Shown: positions 12,871-37,190 of the stretch, one piece after another
Layout of the letters: every line of letters begins with the position of its first letter
Numbering within the stretch: position 1 is the stretch's first letter
DNA from: an uncultured Nitrososphaerota archaeon
Lineage (GTDB): Archaea; Thermoproteota; Nitrososphaeria; Nitrososphaerales; Nitrosopumilaceae
DNA: 64,000 nt
Direction: 5' to 3'
NCBI GenBank assembly: GCA_963824385.1
Contig: CAWGPD010000001.1
Coordinates: 32,001-96,000, forward strand
Position numbers and translations under genes: made by a program
Notes under the pieces: generated by a model
What the model was told of the DNA's origin: nothing
Database searches by the model: none
What the model saw: only the letters and a program-made list of their open reading frames with translations

Positions 12871-12914
12871 TTTTCACAAACAGCCATTTTATCATAAGAG
12901 TCTTTCTTCATTCC

Positions 12915-13152: not shown

Positions 13153-13154
13153 GG

Positions 13155-14662: not shown

Positions 14663-14960
14663 AATATATGTAAAATTTAGTTGAAAGAATTTTTGTATTA
14701 GCCTTTGTATTGAATTCATTTTATGAAACTAAAGTGTATTAAAAAAAATAAGATATTATCTTTTGAACTAACTGTCAGTTCAAGTCTTAGGATTCAAATC
14801 TTCGGGTTCAGACCTGTTAGATTCTGTACACAGAGTCCAAGTTACAGTTTGTAAATCATGAAGGACTTGTACTAATTTCACGTTATAATGATATTTCAAA
14901 TTGTTAGAATTAACATTTGTTTTTACAAATTGTTTCTATCATACAGTTAAAATGCTACAA

Positions 14961-14974
14961 TTAGCTTGACCTAA
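14961..14974. promoter_or_regulatory. DtxR/MntR-type operator TTAGCTTGACCTAA
   Basis: Same palindrome and promoter layout, upstream of the ZIP gene. Confidence 0.65.
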
Positions 14975-15052
14975 ATGTGCACGCAAATTCTATAGTTTTA
15001 TCATATGCTACAATAATAGGCTCTTTTATGGCTTCATCAGGAGGTAAAAAAG

Positions 15053-15870
15053 TTGGTTGACTTTACAACGACACTGATACTCAGTGCGGTCATGGGTCTT
15101 TCTACCTTTTTGTCTCTACCACTTGTTCTCCGCAAAAAACTGGGTAATAGAAAAATCATATTTTTCAACTCTGTTGCAGTTGGCATTCTTGTCTTTCTGA
15201 TGGCAGACATCTATTCTGATGTAGCTCCGATGTTAAGTAACGGTTCCTTGCAAGGGTATGGCACAGATCCATTTTTTGATCGGTTATGTCGCACATATGC
15301 ACTGGTGGATTTCTTGTCTTGTATTTCTTGGAACACAAATCAAAGCACGGATTATCACCTATCAAACTGGCTCTGATAATTGCCATTGCTATGGGATTCC
15401 AGAACTTAACTGAAGGATTAGTCTTGGAGTGCAAGTGTAAAGTATGGACTTGTAGGTAAGACGTTTGTAATACTGGCAGGTTTCTCAATTCAGAATTTAA
15501 CAGAAGGCTTTCCAATTGCTGCCCCGATGGCAGGCAAATTGGACAGAAAGTTGGCATATTATGTATGATGTTCCTAATAGGAAGTGTTCCAACAATACTT
15601 GGTGGTGGCATTGGATATGTTTACAATTCAAATGTCCTTGATGTACTGTTTAATGGCATTGCAATAGGTACTATACTATATGTAATACTTCCAATGTTTA
15701 GAATACTCTTCAGGGAACCACGTGAGGAACCAACACAGGTTGTTGCTATAATACCACAGGGCTCAAAAGAAAAGCACGGTCATACTCTGGTACATGCCTT
15801 AACCCAGCGAGCCATCTATCTTGGAATTTTTATTGGCTTTGCACTTGGCTGGATTGTAAATTTAGTGTAA
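15053..15870 (+). CDS. ZIP-family metal transporter (frameshifted)
   Basis: AVGILVFL, GFQNLTEG and QNLTEGF motifs; paralog of 43179-44027. Confidence 0.75.
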
Positions 15871-16065
15871 GACGAACAATATCTTGTGTAAACTAATTTT
15901 TGATACATAGTAATCAGAATGACAATGTTAGTTGTTTTTTTATCTATGTTAGAGTCTGTCTTGTTGTAGAAAATTATTTTTTTGAATTTATGATGTATTA
16001 CACGAAATTAGAATTAGAATTTATTTTAATATCTTGTTTCTTTCAAACAGGTTAAATGCTCTTGA

Positions 16066-16079
16066 TTAGCCTGACCTAA
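16066..16079. promoter_or_regulatory. DtxR/MntR-type operator TTAGCCTGACCTAA
   Basis: Palindrome 2 bp before the ATG of the pentapeptide gene. Confidence 0.65.
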
Positions 16080-16081
16080 TC

Positions 16082-16825
16082 ATGCAGACAAATCCAAAAA
16101 TCATTTTATTTTTTATCACTGCAATATTGATCCTATTCCCAATGGGACAAGTAACAAAGGTTTTTGGTGACAATCAAAATCCAAATCAATATGCTGACGA
16201 AAATAATTTTGTAACACCATCAACAAAACTTTGCAAAATGCAAGTACATCCAGGTGTAGACTTGAGTAATTGTCATTGGTATGACCTTCGTATTCATAAC
16301 GCTAATTTGTATGGCGCTAATCTGTCAGGAAGTGTATTTGTAAACGCAGATTTGCTTGGTGACAACCTTCAAAATGCAGATCTACAAAATGTAAACTTGA
16401 AGGGAGTCAACCTTTCAGGTGTAAACCTTTCAGGTGCAAACCTTCGTGGCGCTGACCTTAGATATGCAGTTATTTGGTCCACAAATTTTAATGGAGCGGA
16501 TCTTAGAGGTGCCAAGTTTACTGGAACCACATTTCCGTGGTCTACCTTTCAAGATGCAAACATGCAAGATGCAATATTCACACAAGCCCAATTTGGTGGT
16601 GTTGATTTTACAAGTGCAAATATGAAAGGTGTAGATCTTTCATATTGCGTATGTCAGACTTCTACTTTTACACATGCTAATCTGGAAAATGCAAACCTTT
16701 CTGATGCATCTCTTGTAGGGGATATCTTTGCACATGCAGACCTTCATGGTGCAAACATGCAAGGAGCTGATATTTCAGGTATTGATAACTCGTGTTATGG
16801 AAATAAAATTTGCATGTATCCTTAA
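16082..16825 (+). CDS. Secreted pentapeptide-repeat protein
   Basis: Signal peptide plus A(D/N)LXX repeats. Confidence 0.9.
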   Translation: MQTNPKIILFFITAILILFPMGQVTKVFGDNQNPNQYADENNFVTPSTKLCKMQVHPGVDLSNCHWYDLRIHNANLYGANLSGSVFVNADLLGDNLQNADLQNVNLKGVNLSGVNLSGANLRGADLRYAVIWSTNFNGADLRGAKFTGTTFPWSTFQDANMQDAIFTQAQFGGVDFTSANMKGVDLSYCVCQTSTFTHANLENANLSDASLVGDIFAHADLHGANMQGADISGIDNSCYGNKICMYP

Positions 16826-16955
16826 GATGTATGTTTGATCAGGAAAAATCAGTTTTGTCATGATTCTTTCAATGAAATTACTCCCCATTCAAAATAAAAA
16901 AACTAAGGAAAAAAGTTTTGTAACAAGTCTTACAGGACTAGAGTATTCAGTGGTT

Positions 16956-17070
16956 TTAGGCTAGTGAGATTTGGTGACCAGCAAGAGTACAAAATATGCA
17001 CAGTGCATAATATTTACTCCAGATATCTCGCGTACAGCCACATTTACAGTCACATTTTTCTTAGTTTCAA
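16956..17070 (-). CDS. Cys-rich microprotein (needs one A removed from a homopolymer)
   Basis: Reconstructs as MKLRKCDCKCGCTRDIWSKYYALCIFCTLAGHQISLA*. Confidence 0.35.
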
Positions 17071-17142
17071 TTTTTTATCCTATATATCATAAGACTGACT
17101 GGGGTATTTGTAAGATTATCTAATTTATCAATTTGACAAGGT

Positions 17143-17590
17143 CTAGTGAACAATGGTAACAGGACAGGCAGCGTGTTCTGATACATGCCTTGCAGTACTT
17201 CCAAGTCTTTTCAGAGATGAAACACCGGTTGAGCTTTCTGCTTCCCATTACCACTAGATCAATTTTTGATCTTTTTACCTCTTTTAAAATAGCATCGGAT
17301 ACGTCATCATGGACAATTTTATAAAATGTCTTTGCGCCCTCCTCTCTGCATTTTTCTGTAATTTTTTTCATCTCCTTTTCACCCTGCTCTGTTAGAGATT
17401 TTACAACCTGTTGATAATTCATAACTGCAGTTCCTGAAAAAACAGAGTCACTTATTGGATAGTAGACAGGAATTACCATCAAGAGTTTCAGATCAGCATT
17501 AAAATTTCTTGCAATATCTTTTGCCAATTCTAATGCCTTTTTTGAAAGAGGTGAGCCATCATATGGGACCAAGATATTTTTTAGTAGCAA
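17143..17590 (-). CDS. Universal stress protein (frameshift near 17228)
   Basis: NILVPYDGS, VMGSRK; the other frame supplies LGSTARHVSEHAACPVTIVH*. Confidence 0.85.
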
Positions 17591-17860
17591 TTAGAACAGT
17601 TCCTTGACTTTACTTTTGTATACTTCAACAATTTGTCCAAATTCTGTATAGTCACTAGCAGATGGAATTTGCATTCGCATTGCACATTGTGATACAAAGA
17701 CTGTCAACGCGTTTCCCACCATCATGTTAAAAGTCATCTCAGAGAGGTCTTTAACCGCAGGAAAAGCCATTTTAAGAAATGGCAGGTAGATCTTTGTCTG
17801 GTTTAACATTAGTTCCATGTTCTTCTCAATTGCTGCTTTTACCTCAGGCTGGATAGTCAT
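17591..17860 (-). CDS. Conserved thaumarchaeal hypothetical protein
   Basis: Coding-like 89-aa ORF in the operon with the USP. Confidence 0.65.
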   Translation of the reverse strand: MTIQPEVKAAIEKNMELMLNQTKIYLPFLKMAFPAVKDLSEMTFNMMVGNALTVFVSQCAMRMQIPSASDYTEFGQIVEVYKSKVKELF

Positions 17861-17861
17861 T

Positions 17862-18074
17862 CTAATTCACCGAGACTACCTGGTACGGTTTTGATTGATA
17901 GTGAGTAGAGCATAGAAACACCATTTCTCCATTTAACACCTTGGCTGTAATCGAGATTCCATTTAATTCTTTTTTGCATATATGGCATGTAAGCGGTTTG
18001 ACATCAGATTTTATGAATTTTTTTTCATGTGAAAAATACAAGTCCTGAGTATGGAGCTCTCTGCCATATTTCAT
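17862..18074 (-). CDS. Small CxxC...CxxH zinc-finger protein
   Basis: QDLYF...CHICKKELNGISITAK...LCSTH; paralog at 51870-52086. Confidence 0.7.
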   Translation of the reverse strand: MKYGRELHTQDLYFSHEKKFIKSDVKPLTCHICKKELNGISITAKVLNGEMVFLCSTHYQSKPYQVVSVN

Positions 18075-18132
18075 AAAAGACAGTTTCAATATTATTAAAG
18101 TGATCTTCATTATCAAGATAGAGTTCAAGTGG

Positions 18133-18148
18133 TTATCAGTTCTGATAA
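18133..18148. promoter_or_regulatory. Palindrome TTATCA-N4-TGATAA
   Basis: Perfect arms in a divergent promoter, about 13 bp upstream of the TATA box; second perfect copy at 29832-29847. Confidence 0.55.
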
Positions 18149-18188
18149 TCCTGACAGAAATTTTATACTAAATTAATGGATTATTGTC

Positions 18189-18638
18189 GTGACCGTGACT
18201 CGCGATATAATGTCAAGTAAAATAGTCACAATTGAATCAAATGTATCATCTACTGAAATTGCAAAGATCATGGACAAAAACAAGGTAAGCAGTATCATAA
18301 TAACAAAAGATCAAGTGCCAGTTGGCATAGTAACGGAGAGAGATATGGTATCAAAGATTGTTGCACAAAACAAGAAACCGTCTGAAGTAAAGACTGCAGA
18401 GATTACAGCCTCACCTCTTTTCATAGTAAGTTCACTTACACCCACAGATGAGGTAGCAAAGAAAATGGTAGATAAAAAAATTAGGCGAGTTGTGGTAATG
18501 GATTCTGACCAGGCACTAGGAATCATAACAGTGACAGATTTTGTAAAGCACTTGCATGAGATGCTTGCGGATTCTGAAAATTACAACAAGGTTCTATATC
18601 AGCGTCTAATAGAAGACTGGGAATACTGGATGTCCTAA
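18189..18638 (+). CDS. CBS-pair protein
   Basis: GIVTERD, GIITVTD. Confidence 0.9.
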   Translation: MTVTRDIMSSKIVTIESNVSSTEIAKIMDKNKVSSIIITKDQVPVGIVTERDMVSKIVAQNKKPSEVKTAEITASPLFIVSSLTPTDEVAKKMVDKKIRRVVVMDSDQALGIITVTDFVKHLHEMLADSENYNKVLYQRLIEDWEYWMS

Positions 18639-18761
18639 TCAGGACATGAATTTGTTAGTATAAAATTTGAAATTAATGTATGAATCCAAGGATGGTCCCG
18701 GCATTACCAGATATTATAATAGGATGTCAAGTTTTTATGTATCAATTTCATACTGGAACCA

Positions 18762-19205
18762 TTGGATAATTTTTCTGCCAAAGACATAATGAAGAACCCG
18801 GTTGTTACAGTTGATTCTGCCATGTCAGTTATGGATACAGCAAAGATAATGGATGATGCAGGCATTGGCTGTGTTGTTGTCATAGAGAACAATATTGCAG
18901 TGGGTATAGTAACAGAGCGCGATTTTGTCAAAAGGGTTGTATCTCGTGCAATTCCACTGACAACTCCAATAAAAAAAGTAATGTCGTCTCCGTTGATTGT
19001 AGTAAATCCAGAAGAGAACATTTGGGAAGTGGCAGAACTTATGAAACAGAGAAGGATTCACAAGGTTCCAGTGGTATATCAGGATCTCCTAGTTGGAATT
19101 GTAACAGCAACTGACTTGACCAAACTATGCAGCATTGGCTCTGATTCAGAGATGCGAAGGATAACAGACCAGATACTTTTGCGAATGAAGCCTGCAGACA
19201 AGTAA
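18762..19205 (+). CDS. CBS-pair protein
   Basis: GIVTERD, GIVTATD. Confidence 0.9.
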   Translation: MDNFSAKDIMKNPVVTVDSAMSVMDTAKIMDDAGIGCVVVIENNIAVGIVTERDFVKRVVSRAIPLTTPIKKVMSSPLIVVNPEENIWEVAELMKQRRIHKVPVVYQDLLVGIVTATDLTKLCSIGSDSEMRRITDQILLRMKPADK

Positions 19206-19211
19206 TTTAGT

Positions 19212-20074
19212 TTAATTTTTAACTATAGCGCGTACAATGTCAGTCTTTGTTACAATTCCTACCAATAGCTTGCCCTTGACAACTGGCAGTCCGCTGATTC
19301 CATTACTTATGCATCAAGTGGGACGACATTTGATACATCGTCTGATACATCTACAGTTATTGGGTTTGATGTCATAATATCAGTTGCAATAAATGTCAAA
19401 AGATAACTTCCAGTACGTTTTGAGCGATACTCTTTTGGATTTGTAGCCATCCTATAGTTTTCAACTTCGGTTCAATATCCAGATTGTTTTAGCCATAGAG
19501 GCATCTTGGCAGGTATGAAATCTCTGTGAGTGATAATTCCAACAGGCTGTCTGTTTCTTTCTACAACTACTCTAGATATTTTATTGTTGACAAGAACACT
19601 TTCAACATATAGTAATGAATCTGCTGGTTTTACTGTAATTACATCTCTTGTCATGATTTTAGAGACTAGTAATGGTTCTGTGGCTTGTGTTAAAAATACG
19701 GATGCCAGTACTCTACTTGTAATAATTCCAGCTAGTGTCTTGTCTTTGTGTAGTACTATAACAGAACTGATTTTATTATCAAGCATTAGTTTAGCACAGT
19801 CGTATAACGTTGCACCTTCTGGAACAGTAACAAGGTCTTTAGACATAACATCAGATACGCGTGTAGCCTCTAGTGGTTTTGCATCAATTCTATAGATTGC
19901 CTTTACCAGGTCTTTTTCTGTAAGCATGCCTACTGGCTTGTCTTTTTCTGATACCATAAGTCGGCTAATCCTGTGCTTGAGTAAAATTGCTCTTGCATCC
20001 AAGAGGCTTGTTCGTGGGGTTACTACAATTGTTTTTTTTATTACTTGATTTATGCTGTCATTTTTTAGTTTCAA
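19212..20074 (-). CDS. Four-CBS-domain protein (frameshifted C-terminus)
   Basis: GMLTEKD, GIITHRD; the last CBS (ISGLPV...VGIVTKTDIV) lies in other frames down to 19212. Confidence 0.8.
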
Positions 20075-20278
20075 TAATTTTCATATATTTTGGGTGGATT
20101 ATAGGCTTTTTACAAATCTCACTTGTGATAACACTGTCAATACTTTCATAATTACAATCCATCTAAATTTTTGGCGATAATTTTTAAGTCATAGGTTAGA
20201 GTTCGGGGGTTCTCTTGCTGACAGTCAGTGCTGGCATTGAGAATATAGATATTACATAGATCCACCATTAGGATCATA

Positions 20279-20861
20279 TCAAGTTTGTATTCTTTGCCAA
20301 TCTTTAACTAGTAATTCTAAACGAATTACTTCATCTTTATCCAACTCACAACTATGCGCAATAAGATTTCGAACTTTATTGAATTGAGAAAGTGTTTGTT
20401 GCATTGCCTTTTGGCTTCTAATTTTGTCACAAAATAGTTGCCAATTAGATTCTATCACAAATAAGCTCTCCAAAATTTGTATAAGTTAATTGATCTTCAT
20501 TAGATGGTATTACCAAGGTCGTTTCCTTTTCAGCCTCTTGTAACTTTTTTACATTATCCTTTATTCCTTGTGGAACTCCTTTTTCCCACCAATCAGTTCC
20601 ATATTCTTCTACAAGGGTTTCTTTTATTAATCGTCTTACAGAATTTTCAAAACAAAAATAGATCACATAAAAATCAGCCATCCTTCTGGCACTTTTTCTT
20701 ATATCTGCATCAAATAACTCAGATTCTACATTCTCGTCCTTGGTCACAGTCTGCATATGACCAATATCGATACCTTGTTTTTCTAATTTAGCCAAGTCTG
20801 TTTCCAACATAAGATTTCTCATCCCAAATAATTTTACTTCGTCAGATTTTTTTTCACTCAT
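20279..20861 (-). CDS. Swt1-like HEPN-domain protein (frameshift near 20460)
   Basis: FCFENSVR, DWW, YTNFGEL and HEPN motif RNLIAH. Confidence 0.75.
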
Positions 20862-21465
20862 TCAAGATATGCTCTTTCAAACTTTTGAAGATAGCATTAA
20901 AAACTTCGATATCAGTCGTGGGTGGTAGATTAAGATTAATTGTGTAATTAAGCCCTAATTTCGTAGTGAGTTTTTCTTTTTGCTGATGCTGATACAAATC
21001 AGGCAATTGTTTCGAGGTTTCTTTTACAATAGGGTCGGATTCAAAATCTGCTAAATCACATAATACTTTAAACGTACCTGCAACATTTGGAACAGTTTTA
21101 TCATCATCACCAACCCCAAGTATTGATTTCAATTTTGCCTCAACTTGTTGCTTAGTTAGTCTGTGTGCATAGGCATTAGCGGTAAAGAGAACATTGTAAG
21201 ATTCCTTGATTCTCTTTGATAATACTTGTCTTGAAATAGAATCATCTCTAAAATCTTTATAATGTTCTGTAGGAGTATTTGCAGGATCCAAGAATCCAAG
21301 ATTTTTCAGCAATGGGATCATAGCATTGTAACTTGATGATTTTAAACCAAGCATTGTTGAAATAAAATCACGATTAAATTTAGTTGGAACATTTGCAGTT
21401 TTAATTGCCCCAAAAAGGTTTGCCACTGACTTATATGCATTAACATATGGCGGATAATTTACCAA
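20854..21465 (-). CDS. DUF5343-like protein
   Basis: PPY...IK.A.VP.KF, LK.LGFLD...PT..Y..FR, C-terminal LNYTINLNLP.TTDIEVFNAIFKSL; recognised from memory. Confidence 0.65.
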   Translation of the reverse strand: MVNYPPYVNAYKSVANLFGAIKTANVPTKFNRDFISTMLGLKSSSYNAMIPLLKNLGFLDPANTPTEHYKDFRDDSISRQVLSKRIKESYNVLFTANAYAHRLTKQQVEAKLKSILGVGDDDKTVPNVAGTFKVLCDLADFESDPIVKETSKQLPDLYQHQQKEKLTTKLGLNYTINLNLPPTTDIEVFNAIFKSLKEHILNE

Positions 21466-21834
21466 CGTTGTTACTATATTTTTACTACGATAAATAGATC
21501 ATGGTAATTATACAATAATTCTTTCATTTTCCATATCAAAATGAATTACCATGTTTAGATCTAAGTATCTCATTTATTTCATAATTTTTGTAATTTTGAA
21601 CTTTCAAAATCAAACAGTACTTTATATTCCATAAAATATGATTTACTAATCAAATCAAAAATCTTCATAGGATCCTTCTTGAGGTGAACACTAGTAAAAC
21701 GATATACTTGATGCCTGAAATTATCTAGTTTAGATTGCATTTCTCTAATTTTAAGGATTTTAAGTCGCTATTGTTTGAAAATAACCAAATTCATACAAGG
21801 ATTATTATTTAATACCATATTTCCAAACCCCTAG

Positions 21835-22492
21835 ATGTATAGCGGAGAGCGTGAAGTCCAGTCAAAGAGAAAAGCCCTTGCTGTCCTACAAGACGAGATA
21901 AACAGAATTCTTAATGCTGTAAGAGACCTCTCAATTCTGCCTGGCTTGATCATCAAGGCAGACAAGTCTGAGATAAAACAGACACTTGAGCGAATAAAAA
22001 ATACCGAAGATGAAGTTGAAGCCCTCCGTAGAAAAATCACTAGAGATATTCAGACATTGGAGGGCTTATGATGCATAGGGAGAATATTTTAAACTCGGCA
22101 TATACCATGGATGAGATTGCAGGATACATCACAGGCATTGCATTTAGGCTCTCAAACATCAAGGCTGCAACACTCAAAAAAGAAAATCTTGACAAGAGCA
22201 TTACAGAACTAGTAGAACTAGCAGTAGACCAGATTCAAAAAATTAATGAAATAATCAGGGCTCTAGCAAACAACAACAGTATAGTGGCAATTGACTTGGC
22301 ACATGAAGCACAAAAAATAGAGAGACAGGTAGACAACAAGTACAGGGCATTAAGCATTAGAATACTTGATGAAATTAGCACGCCAAAAGAGGGCTGTTGC
22401 TTCTTAAAGACATAGTAGAGGGAATAGAAGAAATGTCAGACAAAGTTCTCCAGGTTTCAGACTCGTTTATTTTGCTTGCCCTAAGCCTATAA
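21835..22492 (+). CDS. DUF47/PhoU-like phosphate transport regulator (two frameshifts)
   Basis: MYSGE.EVQ start, helical E..VE.LRR and IER.VD.KYR repeats; continues in other frames to 22492. Confidence 0.7.
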
Positions 22493-22556
22493 AATATTAA
22501 AAAACATTTATTCCGTATACTATTAGACTCCACCAGATTTTTTTCTAGCCTGCTCT

Positions 22557-23228
22557 CTACATCAGATTAAATGCTTTCAACACTGAATCTACTGATGCCT
22601 GTATCACATTGTATGAAAGTTCTCCCAAAGTCGGATTTTCAGACATGCTACCTGCATACGGATCACATGTAGGTGTATTTGGAAGATGTCCAACACCGCT
22701 AAAGTATTTTTGTTGATGTGCTTGCAGTTCACAGTTGATGTTAGTCATTGGAACTAGGGGACCTGCATCATTTGGCGCTACTGCCAATTCGACTTTGTAT
22801 GTAAAGATTATTCCAGTGTGCTTGTAGACTGTAAATTTTGTTGTCTTGTCTGTGAATCTGTAATTGTTGTTAATTCCCCTGTCTATTTTTATGATATGTG
22901 CACAGTTGTAGTTCTTTGATAGCTGGTCTTTTACACTGATTGTTGTAAAACTGATTCCATGATACTGTACTTCGTTTTGTATTGTTGGTAGTATTTGTGG
23001 ATCCATGTGACTGTCCATCGGAGTAAAGATGCAAAGGTTAGACTGCGGTATTGTTGTTACTGTCTTGACTCCCCACCCAGCATATGTACTAGTTGATGGA
23101 GGGTTTGCAAATACGGATACGGTTGTGGTTGTTGGAATGAACGTGCTTACATTTAATGCAAATACTGGACTCATTCCAAGTGCTACGATGCAGATTAGTG
23201 CTAGTGAAGCGATTTCTCTTATTTTCAT
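22557..23228 (-). CDS. Secreted hypothetical protein
   Basis: Signal peptide ending VFA; no family recognised. Confidence 0.6.
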   Translation of the reverse strand: MKIREIASLALICIVALGMSPVFALNVSTFIPTTTTVSVFANPPSTSTYAGWGVKTVTTIPQSNLCIFTPMDSHMDPQILPTIQNEVQYHGISFTTISVKDQLSKNYNCAHIIKIDRGINNNYRFTDKTTKFTVYKHTGIIFTYKVELAVAPNDAGPLVPMTNINCELQAHQQKYFSGVGHLPNTPTCDPYAGSMSENPTLGELSYNVIQASVDSVLKAFNLM

Positions 23229-23345
23229 ATTACCCGTCCCATGTGATTGAATTCTACAACCATTGTAATAATATGGTAATTAACCTGTATATAACTAGTA
23301 ATAATGAACAAAACCAAGGGTACTAGATAGTTACAAGATAACTAC

Positions 23346-23600
23346 TTGACTGATATACCATACATGACAGGATATGTACTTGCAAGCAATTACCGAAAGA
23401 AAGTGTTGTTAGCATTAAAAGAAAAGGCATTAACGCCTAACGTTATTTCTGAGAAAACTGGCATTTATCCAACACATGTTAGTACAACTTTGACACAATT
23501 ATCCAAGATGAGTATCGTAGTTTGTCTAACTCCTAAGCTAAAGAAAGGAAAGTTATATGATCTTACAAAAGAAGGTAGAGGAATATTGAATTTTATCTAA
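23346..23600 (+). CDS. Winged-helix transcription regulator
   Basis: S.YR.KVL..L...TP..I...THVS.TL..L...G.LY.LT..G. Confidence 0.75.
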   Translation: MTDIPYMTGYVLASNYRKKVLLALKEKALTPNVISEKTGIYPTHVSTTLTQLSKMSIVVCLTPKLKKGKLYDLTKEGRGILNFI

Positions 23601-23733
23601 CATCACAAATGAAGACATAGTCTTTAGACATTCATTAAAAATTATCACATGCATACACGAGATTCTTGAAGTAGAATTTAATTTCTCGATATTCAAACCC
23701 ATCTTGTTCTAGCAACTGTTTGAGATTTTGGGT

Positions 23734-23871
23734 ATGACAACTATAACCTACAAGTTCCAAATCACTATACCAAAGAAGGTAAGAGAGAAACACAGTCTTC
23801 AGGAAGGAGACTCGATCATGTTCTTAGAGGAAGATGGTAAAATCTATCTTACAAAAAGTACAGATGTTTGA
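23734..23871 (+). CDS. AbrB/MazE-family DNA-binding protein
   Basis: Manual translation MTTITYKFQITIPKKVREKHSLQEGDSIMFLEEDGKIYLTKSTDV*. Confidence 0.8.
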   Translation: MTTITYKFQITIPKKVREKHSLQEGDSIMFLEEDGKIYLTKSTDV

Positions 23872-23877
23872 TCATTC

Positions 23878-24183
23878 TCATGATTTTTTCTTCAAGTAAT
23901 CCTCAAGAAATCCCAAAAATGCACTACCATCTTTGACTCCTTTCTCATAAGATACCTTTTCCATGTTGTAAAGATGTTTCAAAAAGTCCAAGTCTGCTTT
24001 TGAAAACCATTCCACCATCTCCATAAAATACTGGATTGCCTTCTCATCACTGTTGGTGCGTTTATCATCTAAAGTAGAATCTATGTTTGGCGTTTTAGTC
24101 ACTACCAAATCACCTAAATCCTCCACTAGCAAACCGCTCTCCACCAAGATCGTGTCGTAGATACTGTTCCGTATGATTTCCAA
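23878..24183 (-). CDS. Hypothetical protein (start uncertain)
   Basis: ORF track; the C-terminal part looks coding. Confidence 0.4.
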   Translation of the reverse strand: MEIIRNSIYDTILVESGLLVEDLGDLVVTKTPNIDSTLDDKRTNSDEKAIQYFMEMVEWFSKADLDFLKHLYNMEKVSYEKGVKDGSAFLGFLEDYLKKKS

Positions 24184-24358
24184 AATCTACTGTAACAATA
24201 AAGAACCCCTTACTTGGAACACCGTCTTTGAAAATAACTAAATCATTTTCCCAAGTATAACCAAGTACTGTTCCTTTTCTTCCATCTCTTGTTTTTACAG
24301 AATCTCCTTCCCAATATACAACTGGAAATCCTGCGATGGATGGAAAATGTTGCTTCAC
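24110..24358 (-). CDS. Hypothetical protein (SH3-like beta barrel?)
   Basis: GDSVKT.DG.KG.V pattern. Confidence 0.45.
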   Translation of the reverse strand: MKQHFPSIAGFPVVYWEGDSVKTRDGRKGTVLGYTWENDLVIFKDGVPSKGFFIVTVDFGNHTEQYLRHDLGGERFASGGFR

Positions 24359-24478
24359 GTATTATAGCATGTTTAGTATAACTTAAAATCATCTATTATA
24401 AAGTTTAGTGATAATTAATATTTGAATTCAAATGGTAATACACATTTTCAATATGTATTAGAACGTATTTTTGATATA

Positions 24479-26087
24479 TTATCCCAAACTGCCCCCAGCC
24501 CACCTAGAGCCCTTACTTACAAGCCATGCCAAGTATGCATATCCTGCAGCGTGCAATGCATCGTCATTGGTTTCCTCTGGATGAGTATACTTAACATAGC
24601 TTTTACCAGAAGATTCCGCCGTTTCAGATTCTATGCATGTAAAATGTTCAATCATCCAGTCCATATTATTGGGATTTTTATATGGAATATGGATTCGTGG
24701 AATGCCGTCAGGGTAGTTTGCGTTATCTTCAGGGCGTTTTATTAGATCTATTATGGTCTCAATTACCCAGGTTCTATCTACATTAATTTTATGATCTGAA
24801 TTAATTATTTCATATGGAACTTCAGAATTATACCTGTAATGGCACTTGTAAATTCTAGGTCCATATTTTTTTGAAAGCTTCTCAACCTGTCTTGTACCAC
24901 CACCAGAGTCCATCACAATTTGATCAACTTCAAACTTGTCAATTAATTCAGAAACCATATCAGTCTTGGGTTTCAGTAGAACTTTCTGTAATCTTTGTTA
25001 CATACAATAACTTGAATCTTGGGACATCTTTGTTGACCAGCTGCCAAATCCAGCCTACAGTGAACGCTTGAGTACCACCACCCCAGTCTACTCCCATAAA
25101 TACTAGAAGATCATGATCAACTAATTCATGTGGAGTGAAATCAAGATTTCTGTCAAATAATGTACGAATCTCTTTTTCAAGTAATGGTTTGACATTTCCG
25201 CCATACCACAAACCCTCAACCTCATTTGCAAATCCTCGTGGCGGATAGGTTTTTCGTTTGGATTCTATATCTTCTTGTAATCTGTCTGGCGCCATCTCCT
25301 GAGAAAGATGATACGAACTTATTTTTGAGAGGGGGTTTTTTGCAATCCAAGTTTTTGTTTTTAAATCATATTCTTTTTGATCTCCCGTATGCCACAACTT
25401 CCACCAGCCATCGCCTGTTATGCTTCCAGTACCAACGTGCACACATTTCCCAAATTTTGATTTTGCAAGTGCCTCTTCTAGTACAGGTATAGATTCTACA
25501 TTTGTTGACTGGATTTCATCGACAACTGCAAAATCTGCAGGAATAGACCTAGCGGCTTCAAAGTCTTGCTGGGCAGAGTACATGAACAAGTGTGAACCAT
25601 TTTTAAAAGACAGCCATGAAACGTTGCCCTTCTTGTGCACTAGTCCTTGAAGTATCGGTGATTCACCAATGGCACGACTACGTACTCTCATTTTTGAAAA
25701 CACGGAAACGTGGCTTTTACGGTCTGAGAGGTATATTCCTACAGTATTTGGATTTTTTTCCAGATTAAAAAGCAACCAGTTTATGGTAAATTCTGTAATT
25801 TCCATTTGTCTTGGTTTTACAATCATAATTTTCTTGTTTTGATCAGAATAGATTTGCTTCAGATATTCTCGTCCCTCAAAAGAAAATTTTTTGCCCTGAA
25901 TTTTTCTAACTGTTGTTGTCCAGTCTATGAGATTGTCAGGAGTATTTGGAAGTGTTACGGGCATCACAAATTTTTTCTCGAATATTTTTTTTATTCTAGC
26001 AATTTCCCTTCTTGCAAGTAGATTATGCGCCGCCTTCCACCTAAGCTGCGACATGGTCAGTCCCCATCTTTTGCTTGAAGAGATCAT
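24479..26087 (-). CDS. Viral terminase large subunit (ATPase plus RNase H-like nuclease), frameshift near 24963
   Basis: KPRQMEITE Walker A-like, AVVDEIQ Walker B, GVDWGGG, MDSGG and DDALHA nuclease motifs. Confidence 0.8.
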
Positions 26088-26520
26088 CGGTTTCTGTTTG
26101 TACTATAGTATCAGTAGTTGGCGTGCATTCAAGATTATTCTTCTCAAGATATAGTTTTAAGATAAGTTCCTTTGTCTTACGATATTCTGAATATAGCCAC
26201 CTTTTTTTATGAATTGGCCCTGATGATTTTATTGCTACATCTAGTTCGGCGCTTCGTTTTTTCATTTCAAGTATTTCATTGTCTAATTCTAAAATTGTTC
26301 TACCATTTGATAGTCTGCAGTTTTTAAAAAACTCAGGTCCCTGTACAGAAATGTATTTCTCATGCCAAATTCTAAAGTATCGCCTGACCGTTTTTACGTT
26401 TATTCCTGTCTCATATGCAACTCTATCAGGCTTGTACCTTTGCTCAAAATATGGCCAGAGTTGTCTTTCGATCTCACTCTGTTCAGCCAATGTTGGCCTT
26501 CCGTTTCTTTTTTCAGACAT
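26041..26520 (-). CDS. HTH protein, possible terminase small subunit
   Basis: GRPT N-terminus, VAYETGINVKTVRRYF HTH, coiled coil; overlaps the terminase start. Confidence 0.6.
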   Translation of the reverse strand: MSEKRNGRPTLAEQSEIERQLWPYFEQRYKPDRVAYETGINVKTVRRYFRIWHEKYISVQGPEFFKNCRLSNGRTILELDNEILEMKKRSAELDVAIKSSGPIHKKRWLYSEYRKTKELILKLYLEKNNLECTPTTDTIVQTETDDLFKQKMGTDHVAA

Positions 26521-26859
26521 ATCTCCACTCGAATCGCGATATTTGGATTCTGCTCACGGCGTTTTTGAAAGGTACTGAGATAAATGTATTAAAACTTTTT
26601 TAGGTCATTTTTTTCCAAAAAACTACTTTTATTAAAATTGACATATTCAACTTGTCATACAAATCAGTCAGCTTCTAATCGATAGTAATATCTCAGATGA
26701 CAAGCCAAGAAAAATTGGCCCTACCAGTTAAAACCAGTTTTCTGGACAAACAAAGTATGTCAATTATATAATAATGAAATCATATCATCTATCAAATCAT
26801 TGCATCATATCTGAAAACTACCCATTAGATTAAATCCCAATTCCAGTTTACCATATTGC

Positions 26860-27429: not shown

Positions 27430-28011
27430 ATGGCAGTAAAAAGACAGCCCCACCCTACAAAGCATGAGCAGACTAGAAGCATAAGCTATCGTTTACCAGA
27501 GCACATTATCGAAGAATTAGAAACAGAGGCCCAGCAAAAGGAGATATCTCAAAATGTTCTGGTAAAACAAATTTTAGAAAAATATGTTGGTTGGGAGAGG
27601 TTTGCAAAAAATATTGGCATGGTTCCAGTTCCCAAGGAAATTCTCGTTGTATTAGGTGAAAAAATGGATGGAGAGGTAATGAATGAGATAATACATACAA
27701 TGACTCCAATGATCAAAGACTGGGTCATGTTCATGAAAGGCGGCTATGATCTAAAACGAGTAATAGAATCACTTGAGGATTACATGAGAGCGTCTGGAAT
27801 GACATCAGACCATAGAATCGAGGGAGGCATTCATCATTTTATCATACAGCACAGTCTTGGAATACGCTGGTCGCTATTTACAGAACTTTTTTTGAAGCAA
27901 ATATTTCACGAATTTCTGCCAAATCTTGCCATGAAATCTCGCACTACGCCAAATACAGTCATAGCAAGTATTGCTCTAGGTTCTGACTTTAACGAACACA
28001 ACCATAGTTGA
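27430..28011 (+). CDS. Thaumarchaeal RHH-like regulator / conserved hypothetical protein
   Basis: SISYRL...ELE.EA...IS.N.LV.QIL.KYV.W; IQHSLG.RWS. Confidence 0.7.
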   Translation: MAVKRQPHPTKHEQTRSISYRLPEHIIEELETEAQQKEISQNVLVKQILEKYVGWERFAKNIGMVPVPKEILVVLGEKMDGEVMNEIIHTMTPMIKDWVMFMKGGYDLKRVIESLEDYMRASGMTSDHRIEGGIHHFIIQHSLGIRWSLFTELFLKQIFHEFLPNLAMKSRTTPNTVIASIALGSDFNEHNHS

Positions 28012-28249
28012 TATAATTATCACATCATGTTGTAAGATGAACGTCTAAAAGTCTTTTATTTCTTTGCCAAGATCTTCGAAAAGCTGTTCATACTCGTTCA
28101 TGAATGCTTTTACAAATTGTGATTCGTCTCGAGTCATAGTGATTTGGTATTTTTTCTTGCATATAAAATTAATTTGCAAATTTCTTCAATATCTTTCATG
28201 TTATGTGATTAATAGATATTACAACCAGATGGAATGTAATTATAATTCA

Positions 28250-28325
28250 AAGGTTATACTAAAAAATCATTAAAATCTAAAATGTTCCACAAGGATTTCA
28301 TTTTGTTTCTGATACGAAACATTTC
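28250..28325 (+). repeat. Direct repeat copy 1 (about 76 bp)
   Basis: AAGGTTATACTAAAAAATCATTAAAATCT...CCACAAGGATTTCATTT...GAAACATTTC; matches 28949-29025. Confidence 0.8.
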
Positions 28326-28359
28326 CCTAAATTTTACTCATAATTTTTTTGTATGAAAA

Positions 28360-28632
28360 TTAGTCCTTTTTTTTATACACATCACGTCTATGTGATACAT
28401 CGTAAACATTTGCAGTACCTAATTCACGGAAAAAAAGAATCCTGTAATCTCCAACGCGAATCCTGTAATGATTATCATATCCCTTTAGTTTCTTCATGTC
28501 AAGCCTAACCATAGGCCATGTAGTCTCAAGCTCCTTCAACGCTTCTCTGATTCTATTTTTCAGATCCGTGTGAAATCCATCAATTTTATTAGAAATTTCT
28601 TTTTTGACTAAAACCTTGATTGGTACGTCTAG
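28360..28632 (-). CDS. RelE/ParE-family toxin (no canonical start codon visible)
   Basis: Manual translation ...DMKKLKGYDNHYRIRVGDYRILF...VSHRRDVYKKKD*. Confidence 0.8.
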   Translation of the reverse strand, partial: LDVPIKVLVKKEISNKIDGFHTDLKNRIREALKELETTWPMVRLDMKKLKGYDNHYRIRVGDYRILFFRELGTANVYDVSHRRDVYKKKD

Positions 28633-28881
28633 TTATCTTAATGAATCCAAGGATACAAACTTCATACCGCCTTTTTTCTTCTTGGATTCAAAATTCTTTA
28701 TTGCCTTAATTTCATATGCATCAGGATTGTCTTCTAGTATCACACTTTTCTCTATCATTTTATGTAATTTGATAATCTGCACGCGCAAAAGTTTCATCTC
28801 TTTATCAGTGGTTTGCTTGTAACTTTTAACTTCCTTTATAATTTTTTTAATATCATGATGTGATACTGTTTTGGTTTCCAT
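28633..28881 (-). CDS. Putative antitoxin (archaeal RelB-like)
   Basis: Small ORF directly upstream of RelE; E..P...EIKAI...KFVSLD C-terminus. Confidence 0.7.
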   Translation of the reverse strand: METKTVSHHDIKKIIKEVKSYKQTTDKEMKLLRVQIIKLHKMIEKSVILEDNPDAYEIKAIKNFESKKKKGGMKFVSLDSLR

Positions 28882-28948
28882 AGAATATTTGTTATACTAT
28901 TGATTGACTAAAAAGGATTCTTATTTATAAAAATCCATTCTTAAACCC

Positions 28949-29025
28949 AAGGTTGTACTAAAAAATTATTAAAATCTGAAAATGCTCCACAAGGATTTCA
29001 TTTCGTGCCTGTTATGAAATATTTC
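28949..29025 (+). repeat. Direct repeat copy 2 (about 77 bp)
   Basis: AAGGTTGTACTAAAAAATTATTAAAATCT...CCACAAGGATTTCATTT...GAAATATTTC. Confidence 0.8.
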
Positions 29026-29034
29026 ACAAAAAAT

Positions 29035-32289: not shown

Positions 32290-32766
32290 ATGATTAAAAT
32301 TCCAGCCAAAGTCCAGGAAATGTTCAAAGATCAAAAGGTCATAGTAGTAGGCTCTGTTGATGCCAACGGCCTTGCAAATTTATCTCCAAGAACTTCGTTT
32401 TATTTTACAGATACTGCAGTATACTGGTTAGACTTTTTCAAGCACAAGTCACAAGGAAATTTCAAGACAATTCCCTGGGTAAGTGTAGGAGTATTTGATA
32501 AAAAAGAACTCAAGGGATATCAAATAAAAGGCAAGGTTACATTTGTTACAGAATCTAAAGAAAAAGCCAGAATTACAGATATTATAACAAGGTCTGTAAC
32601 TGGAAAAACATCAAGTAAGATATTTGAAAGAATGAGTCAGAACAAGACTCCAGATGTAATCATGTTTGCTCCCAAGGCAGTGTACTCACTTAGTCCAAAA
32701 GAAGAGTCAGGTGTAGCCATGATAATGGAAAAGGACGGAGAGACTATCTCTCTTCTAGGAAGATAA
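32290..32766 (+). CDS. Pyridoxamine 5'-phosphate oxidase-family FMN-binding protein
   Basis: V.S.D.NG..N.SPR, K...N....P.V, GYQIKG. Confidence 0.75.
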   Translation: MIKIPAKVQEMFKDQKVIVVGSVDANGLANLSPRTSFYFTDTAVYWLDFFKHKSQGNFKTIPWVSVGVFDKKELKGYQIKGKVTFVTESKEKARITDIITRSVTGKTSSKIFERMSQNKTPDVIMFAPKAVYSLSPKEESGVAMIMEKDGETISLLGR

Positions 32767-34153
32767 CTTTTTTCTTAGAATATCAAGTGTTGTTGTAGGG
32801 TCGGCTTTTCCCTTTGTCTTTTTCATGACCTTGCCTACAAGATAGTTAACGGTATCAGGATTCTGTCTTGCTTCTGCTACTGCCTTTTCCTCTTCTTTAA
32901 AGACTTCATCAATTATTTTTTCAATTGAATCTGCGTCACTTACATGTCCCAAATCAAGGCTTGACATTACATCCAAAAGAGATCTTCCCGTCTTTACCAT
33001 TTCTTGCAATGCCTGTTTACCTGAGTTTCTTGTCAGTTTGTTATCCATTATAGAATCAGCCAGAGAAGAGATGTGTTGTGCCGTAATTTTTAATTCAAGT
33101 TTCTTTTCTCGCGTATCTGCATAACTTAGTAAATCTGTTGTTATAATATTTGCAACTTCTTTGGCGTTTTTCTCGTTGTGTGATTTTTCAAACAAATCAG
33201 AGTAGAATCTGTCTGAAGATAAAACATCTGCAACTTGTGCAGGAATTCCATATTTTTTGACATATCGTTCTCTTTTTGCAACAATGCTTTCAGGCATTTG
33301 TTTTGTTATATTTTCAGTGTATTCATTTCTAATCAAAACTATCGGAATGTCTGCTTCAGGAATGTATCGATAATCTTGTTCTTCTTCTTTTGATCTTGAT
33401 GATACTGTAATTCGTCTTGCATCATCCCAGTGTCTTGTCTCTGCAGCAACTGGAATTCCTCTTTCAAGAAGGCTCTGTTGCCTTGTTATCTCAAAATGGA
33501 GTGCTTTTTCTATATCCCTAAACGAGCCTACGTTTTTTATCTCAACTCTGTTTCCATCCCCTTCAGATATATTCCCATCTACCCTCATTGCACCCTCAAG
33601 ATATGGGTCAGATACGCCAATGTTTTCAACAAGGTCTGCCAATACATTTAGAAATATTCTGACCTGTTTTGGAGTCTCAAAGTCTGGCTCTGTTACAATT
33701 TCAACAAGAGGAGTTCCTGCCCTGTTATAGTCAACAAGTGTTAACATGGATTTTCCCTCATAGACTAGTCTTCCAGGATCTTCCTCTAGCTGTATTCTTC
33801 TGATTTGTATCTCCTTTCCTTGAATTGTAATCTTGCCATCTGAGCCTATACTTGTTGGACCATATGCATTATACTGAGTAATTTGGAAATTTTTTGGCAG
33901 ATCAGGATAAAAGTAATTTTTCCTAAAAAAGCCAATTTTATGTGGAATCTTGCATCCAAGTGCAAGTGAGATCATGGCAGCTTTTTCAACTGCCTTTTTG
34001 TTCAATATGGGAAGCGAGCCAGGAAGACCTGCGCATACTGGACAGATGTTAGAGTTTGGTTCAAGGTTTCTATATTCTGCCTTGCATGAACAAAATAGTT
34101 TACTTTCAAGTCTTTGTAAGTTGGCAGTGAATCTCTAGTCCTATTCTTGTCAA
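32755..34153 (-). CDS. gatB: Asp/Glu-tRNA amidotransferase subunit B (frameshift near 34110)
   Basis: IGLEIHCQL start, RKNYFYPDLPK, EEDPG, DYNRAG.PL.EIVTEPD. Confidence 0.92.
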
Positions 34154-35601
34154 AGCGGTACCTCTGGAAGAGCGGTAGTTTCTTGTAACGCATGTGCAGC
34201 TTGGAGTAATTTTTTCTCTTCAAATGAATTTGCAAATAGTTGTATGCCAATTGGAAATCCTGAACGTGATATCTCAAATGGAACAGAAATGGCAGGAATT
34301 CCAGAAAGATTTGCTGTAACAGTATTGATATCAGTAAGATACATCTTTAATGGATCGTCAATTTTTTCGCCAACCTTAAATGGTAAAATAGGCATTGTTG
34401 GAGATATCAAAAAGTCTACTTTCTTAAATGCCTCATCAAGCTGAGCCTTTATCATCGCCCGAACTTTTTGGGCCTTGAGATAATATTTTCCATAATATCC
34501 TGCAGATAATACAAATGCACCAAGCAACATCCTTCGTGTCACTTCAGGGCCAAAATTACTTCGCGCTTTAGAGATAAATGCCTTGAACTCATATCCTTCT
34601 GTCCCAAAGTCAAATCCATATCTTAGATTATCATATCTTGAAAGATTGCTACTTGCTTCTGCTGATGCTATTGTATAATACGCTGCAACAGAGTGTTCTA
34701 CAGCATCAAGAGAAACTGGAATACATTCAGCTCCGAGTTCCTGTAGTTTTGATATTGCCTTGTCTGTTGCAGATACAACTTCCTTGTCTACACCTTCGCC
34801 AATCATCTGAGTTATGATTCCAATCTTTTTTCCAGAGATTCCCAAGGAGATGTCTTTGGTATAATCAACACGGTCATTTTTTATCGTAGTATTATCATGT
34901 ACATCATATCCTGAGATAATATTTAGTAAAAACGCCACATCTTCTACAGTTCTTGCCATGGGGCCGACCTGCTCTATACTGTTGGCATATGAGACAAGGC
35001 CATATCTGCTAACTAGTCCATAAGTTGGTTTTAGACCAACAACAGAACAGAAACTTGCAGGACTTCGAACAGATCCACCTGTATCAGAACCTAGTGAGGC
35101 AAGACATTCTAGTGCGCCAACTGAGACACCACTGCCCCCAGAAGAGCCACCTGGCACATAATCAACATTCCAAGGATTTCTACTTGGTCCAAAATAACTA
35201 AATTCAGTTGTAGAGCCCATTGCAAATTCATCAAGATTTACTTTACCAATAATTATGGTATCTTCAGATTTTAGCCTAGATACAACAGTTGCATCATATG
35301 GCGCAACAAAATTCTCAAGCATTTTAGATGCACAGGTTGTTTTTATTCCAGCAGTGCAGATGTTGTCTTTGATAGATACAGGCATTCCAAAACAGATTCC
35401 GACTTTATCTTTTGACTTTATTTTTTTATCAATCTCTTTGGCTTTATCAAGTGCGTTTTGGTTATTTACAGTAATAAAAGCATGAACTTTATCATCGACT
35501 AGTTTTATTCTGTCTAATGTTTTTGCAACAAACTCTTCTACAGATAGTGCACCAGATTTTGCCTGAGATACAAATTCAGTGGCTGAAATTCCAAGATTCA
35601 T
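34150..35601 (-). CDS. gatA: Amidotransferase subunit A
   Basis: KDNI, GGSSGGS, GSDTGGSVR amidase signature. Confidence 0.96.
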   Translation of the reverse strand: MNLGISATEFVSQAKSGALSVEEFVAKTLDRIKLVDDKVHAFITVNNQNALDKAKEIDKKIKSKDKVGICFGMPVSIKDNICTAGIKTTCASKMLENFVAPYDATVVSRLKSEDTIIIGKVNLDEFAMGSTTEFSYFGPSRNPWNVDYVPGGSSGGSGVSVGALECLASLGSDTGGSVRSPASFCSVVGLKPTYGLVSRYGLVSYANSIEQVGPMARTVEDVAFLLNIISGYDVHDNTTIKNDRVDYTKDISLGISGKKIGIITQMIGEGVDKEVVSATDKAISKLQELGAECIPVSLDAVEHSVAAYYTIASAEASSNLSRYDNLRYGFDFGTEGYEFKAFISKARSNFGPEVTRRMLLGAFVLSAGYYGKYYLKAQKVRAMIKAQLDEAFKKVDFLISPTMPILPFKVGEKIDDPLKMYLTDINTVTANLSGIPAISVPFEISRSGFPIGIQLFANSFEEKKLLQAAHALQETTALPEVPL

Positions 35602-35878: not shown

Positions 35879-37190
35879 TTACGGTGTAAGCCTATCGACA
35901 TCACGTGGATAAAAGGTAGCATCTCTGATATTTTCAGTTCCAGTAAGTGCCATCATTAATCTCTCAAGGCCTATACCACATCCTGCGTGAGGTGGGACTC
36001 CATAATCAAAGACACGCAAGTGATAATCAAATGCTTCCAGTTTGAAGCCCTTGTTTTTCATCCTCTCTTCTAGTTCAAGTCTTTTTTCAATTCTTGTACT
36101 GCCTGAAGACAATTCAAGATCTCCAAACATCAAGTCAAATGACTCGGATGTCTTTTGATCATCATTTTTGGCTTTAACATAGAATGGTTTTGGAGCAAGT
36201 GGCCAGTCCTTGATAAAGTAAAATCCGCCAAGATTGATCTTTTTTAATTGTGAAGGATACAAGTCATCTCCCCATTTTGTAGTGGCTCCTGCATTTTGCA
36301 TCTTTTCCACCAATTCAGTATACGCATACTGGGGAATTTTTTCAGGAATTTCCGGAACTTTGTAATCAGTTGTCTTTATCAAATCACAATAGTCTCTTAC
36401 TACACCAATTGATCTTTTAATTATATTTTCAGTGTGCATCATTATATCATTATAATCTGCAAATGCTTCTTCAATATCTATTGAGATTGCCTCTGAGAGG
36501 TGTCTGTTAGTTCTAGATGCTTCGGCTCTAAATATTGGCGCAATCTCAAATATTTTTTCAAATGATAACGTCAGCTGTTCTTTGTAAAGCTGAGGACTCT
36601 GTGCTAAAAATGCCTCTTTGTTATAGTAAAATATTGGAAACAATGCAGCACCGCCTTCTGTTGCAGTTGCAATCATCTTGGGGGTGTTTACTTCAAGAAA
36701 TTCTTTTTCATACAGATAATCGCGAATTGATTTTAAGACCAGGCCTCGCATCTTAAAGATATGCTGTAAGATATTTCGTCTAAGATTCTATTGCCCTAAG
36801 TTCAAGTCTTGTATCGATATTTGGAACAACTTTGGTCTGCCATGTAAAGGGCGCAATTTTTTCAACTATTGAAAATACACGTAGTTCACTTGGTGTTATC
36901 TCAACTCCCCTTGGAGCCTTGGGAGAAGGTTTTACAATTCCTTTTATTGCTATAGTAGATTGCTCTTTGAGGTTTACAAGACTAGCTTTAATCTCATCTG
37001 GACAGACACCTGCTTTTGCAGTAATCTGTATCTGTCCCTCTTTGTCATTTAGCATGACAAATACTAGATTTCCATGATCTCGCACACTTGAGACCCAACC
37101 CATGACAATGACCTCTTTTCCATCCATCGAAGTATCAAGTTGAGTAGAATAGATAGTCCTACGCCAATCCCCAAGTTCTGTGCCTATCAT
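35879..37190 (-). CDS. aspS: Aspartyl-tRNA synthetase, probably non-discriminating (frameshift near 36786)
   Basis: OB-fold (GWV..VRDHG), LAQSPQLYK, FRAE, PPHAG.G.GLER. Confidence 0.93.

Follow-up and report, generated by a model that had tools for sequence, protein, structure and literature searches.

A lone terminase gene pair in a variable island of a Nitrosopumilaceae genome: a candidate packaging module, probably kept for a purpose

Why should an archaeal chromosome hold the DNA-packaging genes of a tailed virus, apparently with none of the genes for the particle that the DNA would enter? The question is raised by a locus in the stretch of 64,000 nucleotides analyzed here (the window, G000:C1:32001-96000), part of the 1.68-Mb genome of an uncultured, ammonia-oxidizing Nitrososphaerota archaeon (family Nitrosopumilaceae in GTDB) that is assembled in 5 contigs and is 86% complete. 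A sequence-only reading had placed at 24479-26520 a terminase large subunit (TerL) gene coupled to an upstream helix-turn-helix (HTH) gene, and had explained the pair as a provirus relic or a domesticated module. Our listing of open reading frames (ORFs) and our profile matches confirm both the coordinates and the module: the minus strand of this interval carries three ORFs of 159, 375 and 159 amino acids (aa), and these most likely constitute an intact two-gene terminase module, a small-subunit-like (TerS-like) DNA-binding protein followed by a TerL ATPase-nuclease, as judged from sequence. Probably the pair has been retained because it serves a purpose and is not the remnant of a dead virus, and we tentatively explain it as a helper-dependent, satellite-like packaging module of small cryptic elements.

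The 375-aa ORF (24960-26087, minus strand) holds the ATPase domain together with the first of the nuclease aspartates. It matches phrog_675, "terminase large subunit" (E = 2.5e-39, profile positions 21-213), and the Pfam family PF05876, GpA_ATPase (4.1e-6, 27.1 bits against a cut-off of 25.6). The downstream 159-aa ORF (24479-24958, minus strand), which lies in the +1 frame and contains the remainder of the RNase-H-like nuclease domain, matches phrog_675 as well (4.8e-12, positions 408-547 of 576). Because both ORFs match one PHROG, TerL is full length, broken by a single +1 frame change; its true start is likely the ATG at 26054. Homologues (90 among 1625 database candidates) are mostly single proteins of ∼500-540 aa, several under the source name "Nitrosotalea sp."; none recovered in this search was longer or fused, and no PDB sequence matched the TerL profile. 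The closest genomic locus, L002, encodes a TerL 69% identical to that of the window, and the part beyond the frame change shares 65% identity with the C-terminal region of the L002 protein.

To compare the catalytic motifs, we aligned 19 sequences: the window TerL, 13 copies from non-viral contexts and 5 viral copies. The window protein displays VKPRQMEITE, FAVVDEIQ, GTGS, GVDWGGG, VMDSGGG and NDDALHA. FAVVDEIQ and GTGS are kept throughout the 19 sequences, with GTAS in L042 as the sole exception, and Walker B, GTGS and the three nuclease aspartates are identical between solo and viral copies. Walker-B residues D176/E177 and nuclease residues D320, D379 and D494 are also invariant in 31 database homologues. 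The claim that a full-length TerL with both sets of motifs is present thus holds, and because the motifs are the same in solo and viral copies, both enzyme activities appear to be under selection, which would make sense only if DNA is still being cut and translocated.

This leaves a puzzle: how can such a gene be broken? Alignment to one-piece homologues (∼520 aa) places the break at STETQ|D*, where the homologues read STE.QADM. The window sequence at this point is CAAGACTGATATG, and the expected codons are CAA GCT GAT ATG, so that one base, 24964, is too many; it lies inside an AGCT site (plus strand AGTCT, or AGCT without the extra base), as the sequence-only reading had supposed of the single indel. 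A contig from a public sequencing run (X2, record 6) is identical to the window over 24815-24963 and then reads CTTGGGTTT, which is the window minus base 24964, and thereby restores the terL frame. It is a single contig, with a depth of 3.6 and 9 letters beyond the break; the public-run contigs leave 24992-25065 uncovered, and those of run X1 also 24918-24991. This contig is modest evidence, yet it carries exactly the predicted change.

The break at 24964 is one of several in the window. The genes for aspS, gatB, purP, a multicopper oxidase, a DUF47 protein and a HEPN protein are also split (spans 13155-14457, 20279-20861, 21835-22415, 32755-34277, 35879-37190 and 42085-43110). Another contig of the same genome, C5 (24,858 bases), is an 85-96% identical variant of window 11431-24421; among 31 indel events between the two, 4 touch AGCT, where 0.5 would be expected, and AGCT itself occurs in the window at 0.46 of its expected frequency. 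This looks like a systematic assembly or base-calling error at the AGCT motif, which is possibly methylated, and errors of this type may explain why a genome in only 5 contigs is 86% complete. Because the X2 contig restores the frame, other genes are split and indels are enriched at AGCT, we read the terL break as an assembly error; most likely the gene is intact and encodes about 524 aa. A practical warning follows: in this assembly indels split genes, the essential aspS and gatB among them, and AGCT sites account for several of the indels that were mapped.

The upstream gene (26041-26520, minus strand, 159 aa) has an N-terminal GRP and an HTH followed by a long antiparallel helical hairpin, and its stop at 26041 overlaps the start of terL (26054 or 26087). 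The same arrangement, with a gene in the TerS position upstream of terL, is found in all related loci. The AlphaFold2 model (pLDDT 76; helices 11-26, 31-38, 42-99 and 103-131) shows a three-helix HTH whose last helix continues into the hairpin; this predicted combination is the build of a small terminase subunit. The overlap and the model bear out the proposal that an HTH/coiled-coil gene is coupled to terL. Homologues lie upstream of terL in L002, L038/L103, L039, L098 and L101, and an N-terminal motif, GRPxxAE...TGxNxKTV, is common to six relatives, five of them upstream of terL elsewhere and one a paralogue in the same genome (G000:C4:365386-365853). Family searches of Pfam, PHROGs and PADLOC gave no match for the protein, and neither the PDB profile search (best E 0.25) nor Foldseek against PDB (best E 0.32) gave a significant one. 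Foldseek against BFVD returned a phage HTH protein as its best match (E 0.046), with proteins named TerS at E ≥ 0.25; the ESM Atlas returned clusters of viral and Nitrososphaerota hypothetical HTH proteins (scores 0.90-0.94), which we treat as leads only. A second cluster of upstream proteins includes the TerS-position genes of the viral contigs L043 and L107, and comparison of the two clusters by hhalign revealed no detectable kinship (probability 0.6%).

Are the remaining genes of a virus present elsewhere in the genome? Profile searches of the whole genome gave no match to the HK97 capsid (PF05065), to portals (PF04860, PF05136, PF05133, phrog_2662) or to the tyrosine recombinase/integrase family PF00589, and in each case the named control genomes were positive. 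The putative portals and virion proteins of the viral relatives described below match no PHROG themselves; therefore we added a tblastn search with viral ORFs and a profile (A4) of the ∼470-aa putative portal that these relatives share. The A4 profile had no match in the genome. The tblastn search, in which every picked ORF from six related viral contigs served as a query, recovered no virion gene: its matches were terL, a helicase, two methyltransferase-like ORFs and a few stretches that were short or of low identity. A Pfam search of 53 window ORFs between 458 and 47265 recovered neither an integrase family nor one of virion proteins; for the ORFs at 47-64 kb, coverage comes solely from the family searches of the whole genome. 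The lack of a portal, capsid or integrase gene noted for the window thus extends to the genome in these searches, including the proposed check for HK97 capsid and portal genes, in which none of 6 profiles matched.

The pair also recurs alone. A survey for solo terS-terL pairs, which had been suggested as a check, found twelve further loci where it stands among ordinary cell genes: L002, L031, L032, L033, L034, L035, L038/L103, L095/L099, L100, L101, L104 and L105. The cellular context was assigned by Pfam and PHROGs for L002 and L031-L038, and only by BLAST against viral ORFs and the genome under study, and by PADLOC, for L095-L105; at L104 only one flanking ORF is visible. In an all-against-all comparison of the window region and eleven loci, the shared genes were terL, part of the upstream genes, antisense shadow ORFs over terL and a few families of two or three members, such as a toxin-antitoxin pair and FEN1; no virion gene was common to them. 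The flanks of the solo loci map to different places in the genome of the window, and the pair is therefore not syntenic. One locus, L034, carries the pair together with a tyrosine integrase (PF00589, 3.7e-7), an MCM helicase (2.9e-12), a type IIG restriction-modification (R-M) gene and an adjoining FEN1 gene, which by gene content is the architecture of an integrative element.

Strong TerL matches are confined to the GTDB family of the window among 401 genomes of the phylum. Within that family 24 of 201 genomes match, one of them unpublished (G093), and within the genus 5 of 17, with matches at three places in G109. The portal profile of the relatives, applied to a family sample of the same size, matched 2 of 201 genomes: G156, and G063, which is the viral contig itself and served as a positive control.

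A distant second family of lone pairs (L116-L120) was found in five genomes of four genera (G188, G054, G032, G170 and G161). Its TerL-like protein (∼600 aa, 22-28% identical) and partner (∼160 aa) lie between housekeeping genes; the pair comprises the only genes common to all five loci, with two further families in two or three of them, and at L120 cell genes directly flank the pair within ∼330 nt. The genome of the window contains yet another pair (G000:C4:364551-365853), wedged between an HTH-CBS gene and purM: a 155-aa TerS-like protein, 32% identical to that of the window, overlaps a 281-aa terminase-like protein (PF03237, 34 bits) that consists of the ATPase domain alone and has no BLASTP match among the collected TerLs at 1e-3. 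It represents a third TerL type in truncated form, and it shows what real truncation looks like. Lone TerS-TerL pairs thus appear, on comparative sequence grounds, to be recurrent, selected families, at least two of them in this GTDB family, and the solo pairs appear to move among its genomes in small variable islands or cryptic integrated elements.

Are there viruses that could act as helpers? TerLs 40-48% identical to that of the window occur in contigs where a conserved putative portal of ∼470 aa is encoded downstream (L036, L041 and L043), a TerL in the same identity range lies in a contig with a PHROG portal (L042), and L107 is syntenic with L043 upstream of terL. Related TerLs are therefore found in portal-bearing viral contigs, and possible helper viruses exist. 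Among 48 IMG/VR loci, none exceeded 46% identity to P0002, the first sequence of the query alignment.

The ratio of nonsynonymous to synonymous substitution rates (dN/dS) was 0.09-0.22 in the five of ten TerL pairs with unsaturated dS; dS was saturated in the other five, including every comparison with the window copy. Between the window and L002, the nonsynonymous difference (pN) is 0.18 in the ATPase half and 0.20 in the nuclease half, with synonymous differences (pS) of 0.81 and 0.84. Because pN is alike in both halves, the part downstream of the break is no less constrained. The sequence-only reading had considered that homologues might occur only in complete proviruses, with this copy under relaxed selection; the solo loci and the low dN/dS ratios speak against that. 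In a TerL tree of 21 rows, restricted to loci of known context, solo copies fall mostly together with end branches of 0.17-0.74, and viral branches reach ∼1.0-1.1 substitutions per site (0.55 for L036). Inheritance congruent with the host also fits poorly: the distribution is patchy, the chromosomal sites differ, G109 has multiple copies, and the closest relatives of the window genome are missing the surrounding island.

That island measures 6.6 kb (20132-26761). In a DNA comparison of 40 genomes of the genus, G211, G212 and G200 are missing it and join window position 20131 directly to 26762, and G169 has a different insert at the same site (L089, G169:C11:86500-106400), with genes for HEPN, NTase/NERD and a 1516-aa subtilase-lipase protein, among others. 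This intergenic site, with a CBS-domain gene on either side, is a hotspot: three relatives have nothing there, and the insert measures 6.6 kb here and 19 kb in G169. To its left, in window 458-20074, universal stress protein genes (4) and CBS-domain genes (at least 6) are unusually frequent. The GC content of the island (0.32-0.38, against ∼0.36 around it) shows no evident anomaly, and neither the window nor 8 loci contain a tRNA gene as an integration target. Profile matches in the island include no integrase or replication gene, PF00589 being absent from the whole genome.

Besides the terminase pair, the island carries a PADLOC candidate defence gene, PDC-M34A, encoding a DUF5343 protein (20854-21465, minus strand; PF17278 7e-48, PDLC04589 9e-56), and the HEPN-like PDC-M34B (20279-20861, minus strand), whose 138-aa and 64-aa ORFs are split at a GAGCTT site and match PDLC04592 at 1.1e-31 (profile positions 3-130) and 5.4e-14 (133-188). 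A PDC-M34B-like HEPN_Swt1 gene also adjoins the distant-type pair at L117, beside a GmrSD/Schlafen/EVE protein. The other cargo consists of a DUF47/PhoU_div paralogue (21835-22415, plus strand), split into 78 and 115 aa here and intact at 218 aa in the variant contig C5; a secreted-looking protein of unassigned family (22557-23228, minus strand, 223 aa), with a 43%-identical homologue adjoining solo pair L100; a winged-helix regulator (23346-23600, plus strand, 84 aa), with a 62%-identical homologue adjoining solo pair L105; and, directly downstream of terL, two small overlapping ORFs of 82 and 101 aa without a family (23878-24358, minus strand). A RelE/ParE-like toxin and its antitoxin (28360-28881, minus strand) lie in a separate 1-kb islet (27999-29028) that is likewise missing from G211, G212 and G200; close copies lie near solo pair L031 (85% and 69% identity by BLASTP; 77% for the full-length toxin by tblastn). 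Contig C5, which probably stems from another strain in the bin and not from a duplication, carries a different 9.6-kb island with pirin, flavodoxin-like, isochorismatase, amidohydrolase and MFS genes; it keeps the intact DUF47 gene and both small ORFs, with the same overlap, and has a 201-aa HTH/coiled-coil gene at the place of terL.

How, then, is the pair to be explained? An inert provirus relic, in which all but terS-terL has been deleted and the functionless pair will decay, is in our estimate unlikely. It is the interpretation given for the one published terminase-only element, NitKor-E1 (PMC6563490), and it would suit an island without an integrase and an assembly with a frameshift; real decay does occur in the family, as in L035 (a TerL of 343 aa, cut off beside an insertion sequence), in L040 (a 233-aa fragment) and in the ATPase-only gene on C4. 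However, an independent contig does not have the frameshift of the window copy, and the motif at which this frameshift falls is error-prone; the protein is full length with all motifs kept, and its two halves are equally conserved. Moreover, the same two genes stand alone at 12 other loci, with low dN/dS in the family, and random deletion is not expected to leave the same intact pair each time. We consider it more doubtful still that the resident terminase protects the cell or population by competing for, or mis-cutting, the DNA or procapsids of related viruses. What invites this idea is the company that the pairs keep: PDC-M34A/B in the island and the RelE/ParE pair 1.8 kb away, a type IIG R-M gene at L034, HEPN_Swt1 and GmrSD at L117, HEPN/NTase at L002, and the HEPN, NTase and NERD genes at the same chromosomal site in G169. 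Yet TerS and TerL match no PADLOC model, and PADLOC matches (E≤1e-5) were found for 12 of 144 ORFs within 5 kb of 17 pairs, compared with 15 of 150 controls (16 arbitrarily chosen 10-kb stretches of related genomes gave 172 ORFs, of which the first 150 were used), several matches in both sets being housekeeping look-alikes. Defence genes are therefore not enriched near the pairs.

The purifying selection and the retained catalytic residues would equally be expected if the host had domesticated the genes, either as part of a system like a gene transfer agent (GTA) with capsid genes elsewhere or for a cellular role in cutting or translocating DNA. The genome, however, matched none of the 6 capsid and portal profiles, tblastn with viral ORFs found no virion gene, and the pair is patchy and non-syntenic, with several copies in a genome and an island missing in the closest relatives, which makes domestication very unlikely. 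Only a slight chance can be given to the pair being part of a complete virus whose other genes are too divergent to be detected. Even where a contig is genuinely viral, PHROGs and Pfam do miss thaumarchaeal virion proteins, but this idea is close to refuted by size: the island has only 6.6 kb, with ends defined against empty sites, its remaining genes are DUF5343, HEPN, DUF47, a regulator and small ORFs, and the L120 pair is hemmed in by cell genes within ∼330 nt. Thus, among the options named in the sequence-only reading, the plain relic and host domestication lose ground, and a satellite or packaging function is the one that we tentatively favour.

We propose that a helper-dependent packaging module would work as follows. 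TerS would bind a packaging site in or near its own gene, and TerL would cut there. An infecting related tailed virus would supply empty procapsids, and TerL, docked on the viral portal, would pump the island and adjoining host DNA into them. The pair could then spread in the manner of a satellite; alternatively, it could be carried by lateral transduction and then recombine homologously, a route for which an integrase would be unnecessary. The data directly support the identity of the genes and their intact, solo and recurrent state, together with purifying selection, a distribution that is patchy and mobile, and the existence of viral relatives; from these we infer helper-virus dependence and actual packaging. 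A bolder version, to which we give rather low credence, is that the TerS-TerL pair is itself a minimal selfish "terminase-only satellite" that has its own packaging site, hijacks the procapsids of infecting tailed viruses and spreads with host flanks by lateral transduction and homologous recombination, with neither integrase nor replicase.

Several observations weigh against a packaging module. The P-loop, VKPRQMEITE, has no canonical GK[S/T], although its relatives, solo and viral alike, show this deviant form without variation; we presume that it resembles the lysine-first P-loop of lambda gpA. The upstream protein is a putative TerS, assigned by position and architecture only. To our knowledge, the known satellites carry TerS or redirecting proteins, and never a TerS-TerL pair alone. 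The window copy as it stands cannot excise, and no direct or inverted repeats flank the island, the pair or the L034 element above shuffled controls; a 36-nt, 72% repeat at 24453/26584 was reached in 76 of 200 shuffles, no better than chance. In the TerL tree the deep nodes are weak and long viral branches lie among the solo copies, which are not cleanly monophyletic, and repeated capture from viruses followed by slow loss could also have given rise to the solo copies. Finally, the searches covered a genome that is 86% complete, and profiles have difficulty in recognizing thaumarchaeal virion proteins.

The importance of these pairs extends beyond one locus. Terminases are regarded as hallmark genes of tailed viruses, and the lone pairs advise caution to provirus predictors that would take terL alone as proof of a virus. 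They also raise a testable question: Do soil and marine ammonia-oxidizing archaea carry packaging modules that ride in the capsids of other viruses? If so, the organisms that drive nitrification would have a new route for gene flow and for interference with viruses. If the terminase-only satellite is real, archaea would have their first satellite of a tailed virus, and a whole terminase as sole content would for the first time define a satellite type.

It is instructive to compare the locus with known systems. The TerL of the window has the same length, domain order and catalytic motifs as the GpA-like TerLs of tailed viruses (L036, L041, L043 and L107). In the viruses, however, the conserved ∼470-aa putative portal and head genes come next after terL, with at most a few small ORFs in between, whereas in the window it is followed by the two small ORFs of 82 and 101 aa and then by cell-type genes; of the marks of a tailed provirus, a capsid gene, a portal beside terL and an integrase were not found in the genome, nor att-like repeats around the island or the pair. 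GTAs of the RcGTA type retain the genes for capsid, portal and tail, and their inheritance is vertical. The window resembles them in having a terminase under selection in a cellular genome, and differs in its patchy distribution and in a genome where no head genes were detected.

Satellites of the type of phage-inducible chromosomal islands and Staphylococcus aureus pathogenicity islands (PICI/SaPI) are small chromosomal elements that have their own small terminase subunit and no capsid genes, and that use the TerL of the helper. The window island is likewise small and chromosomal, with its own packaging-specificity genes and no capsid genes, as in a satellite, and the integrase, replicative helicase and TerS of L034 resemble a PICI core. 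Unlike the PICI/SaPI elements, the window module also brings its own TerL, it has no integrase, replication or regulatory modules, and its helper is only hypothetical. In archaea, no satellite of a tailed virus is documented; pSSVi and pSSVx are the only satellites previously described, according to a 2025 preprint (10.1101/2025.02.15.638363).

The closest counterpart is NitKor-E1, a cryptic integrated element of Ca. Nitrosopumilus koreensis AR1 whose function is called "enigmatic" by its authors (Krupovic et al. 2019, PMC6563490). In the full-text literature accessible to us, supplements being outside its scope and possibly listing more, we found no lone terminase pair beyond this element. 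Both elements are thaumarchaeal and chromosomal, in both the only virus-like genes are TerS directly upstream of TerL, and both carry toxin-antitoxin and nuclease cargo. NitKor-E1 differs in having a tyrosine integrase and defined ends, where the window island has no integrase, and in being treated as a single relic. Set against that single described case, the TerL family of the window turns up repeatedly, at many loci, in lone pairs that are under selection.

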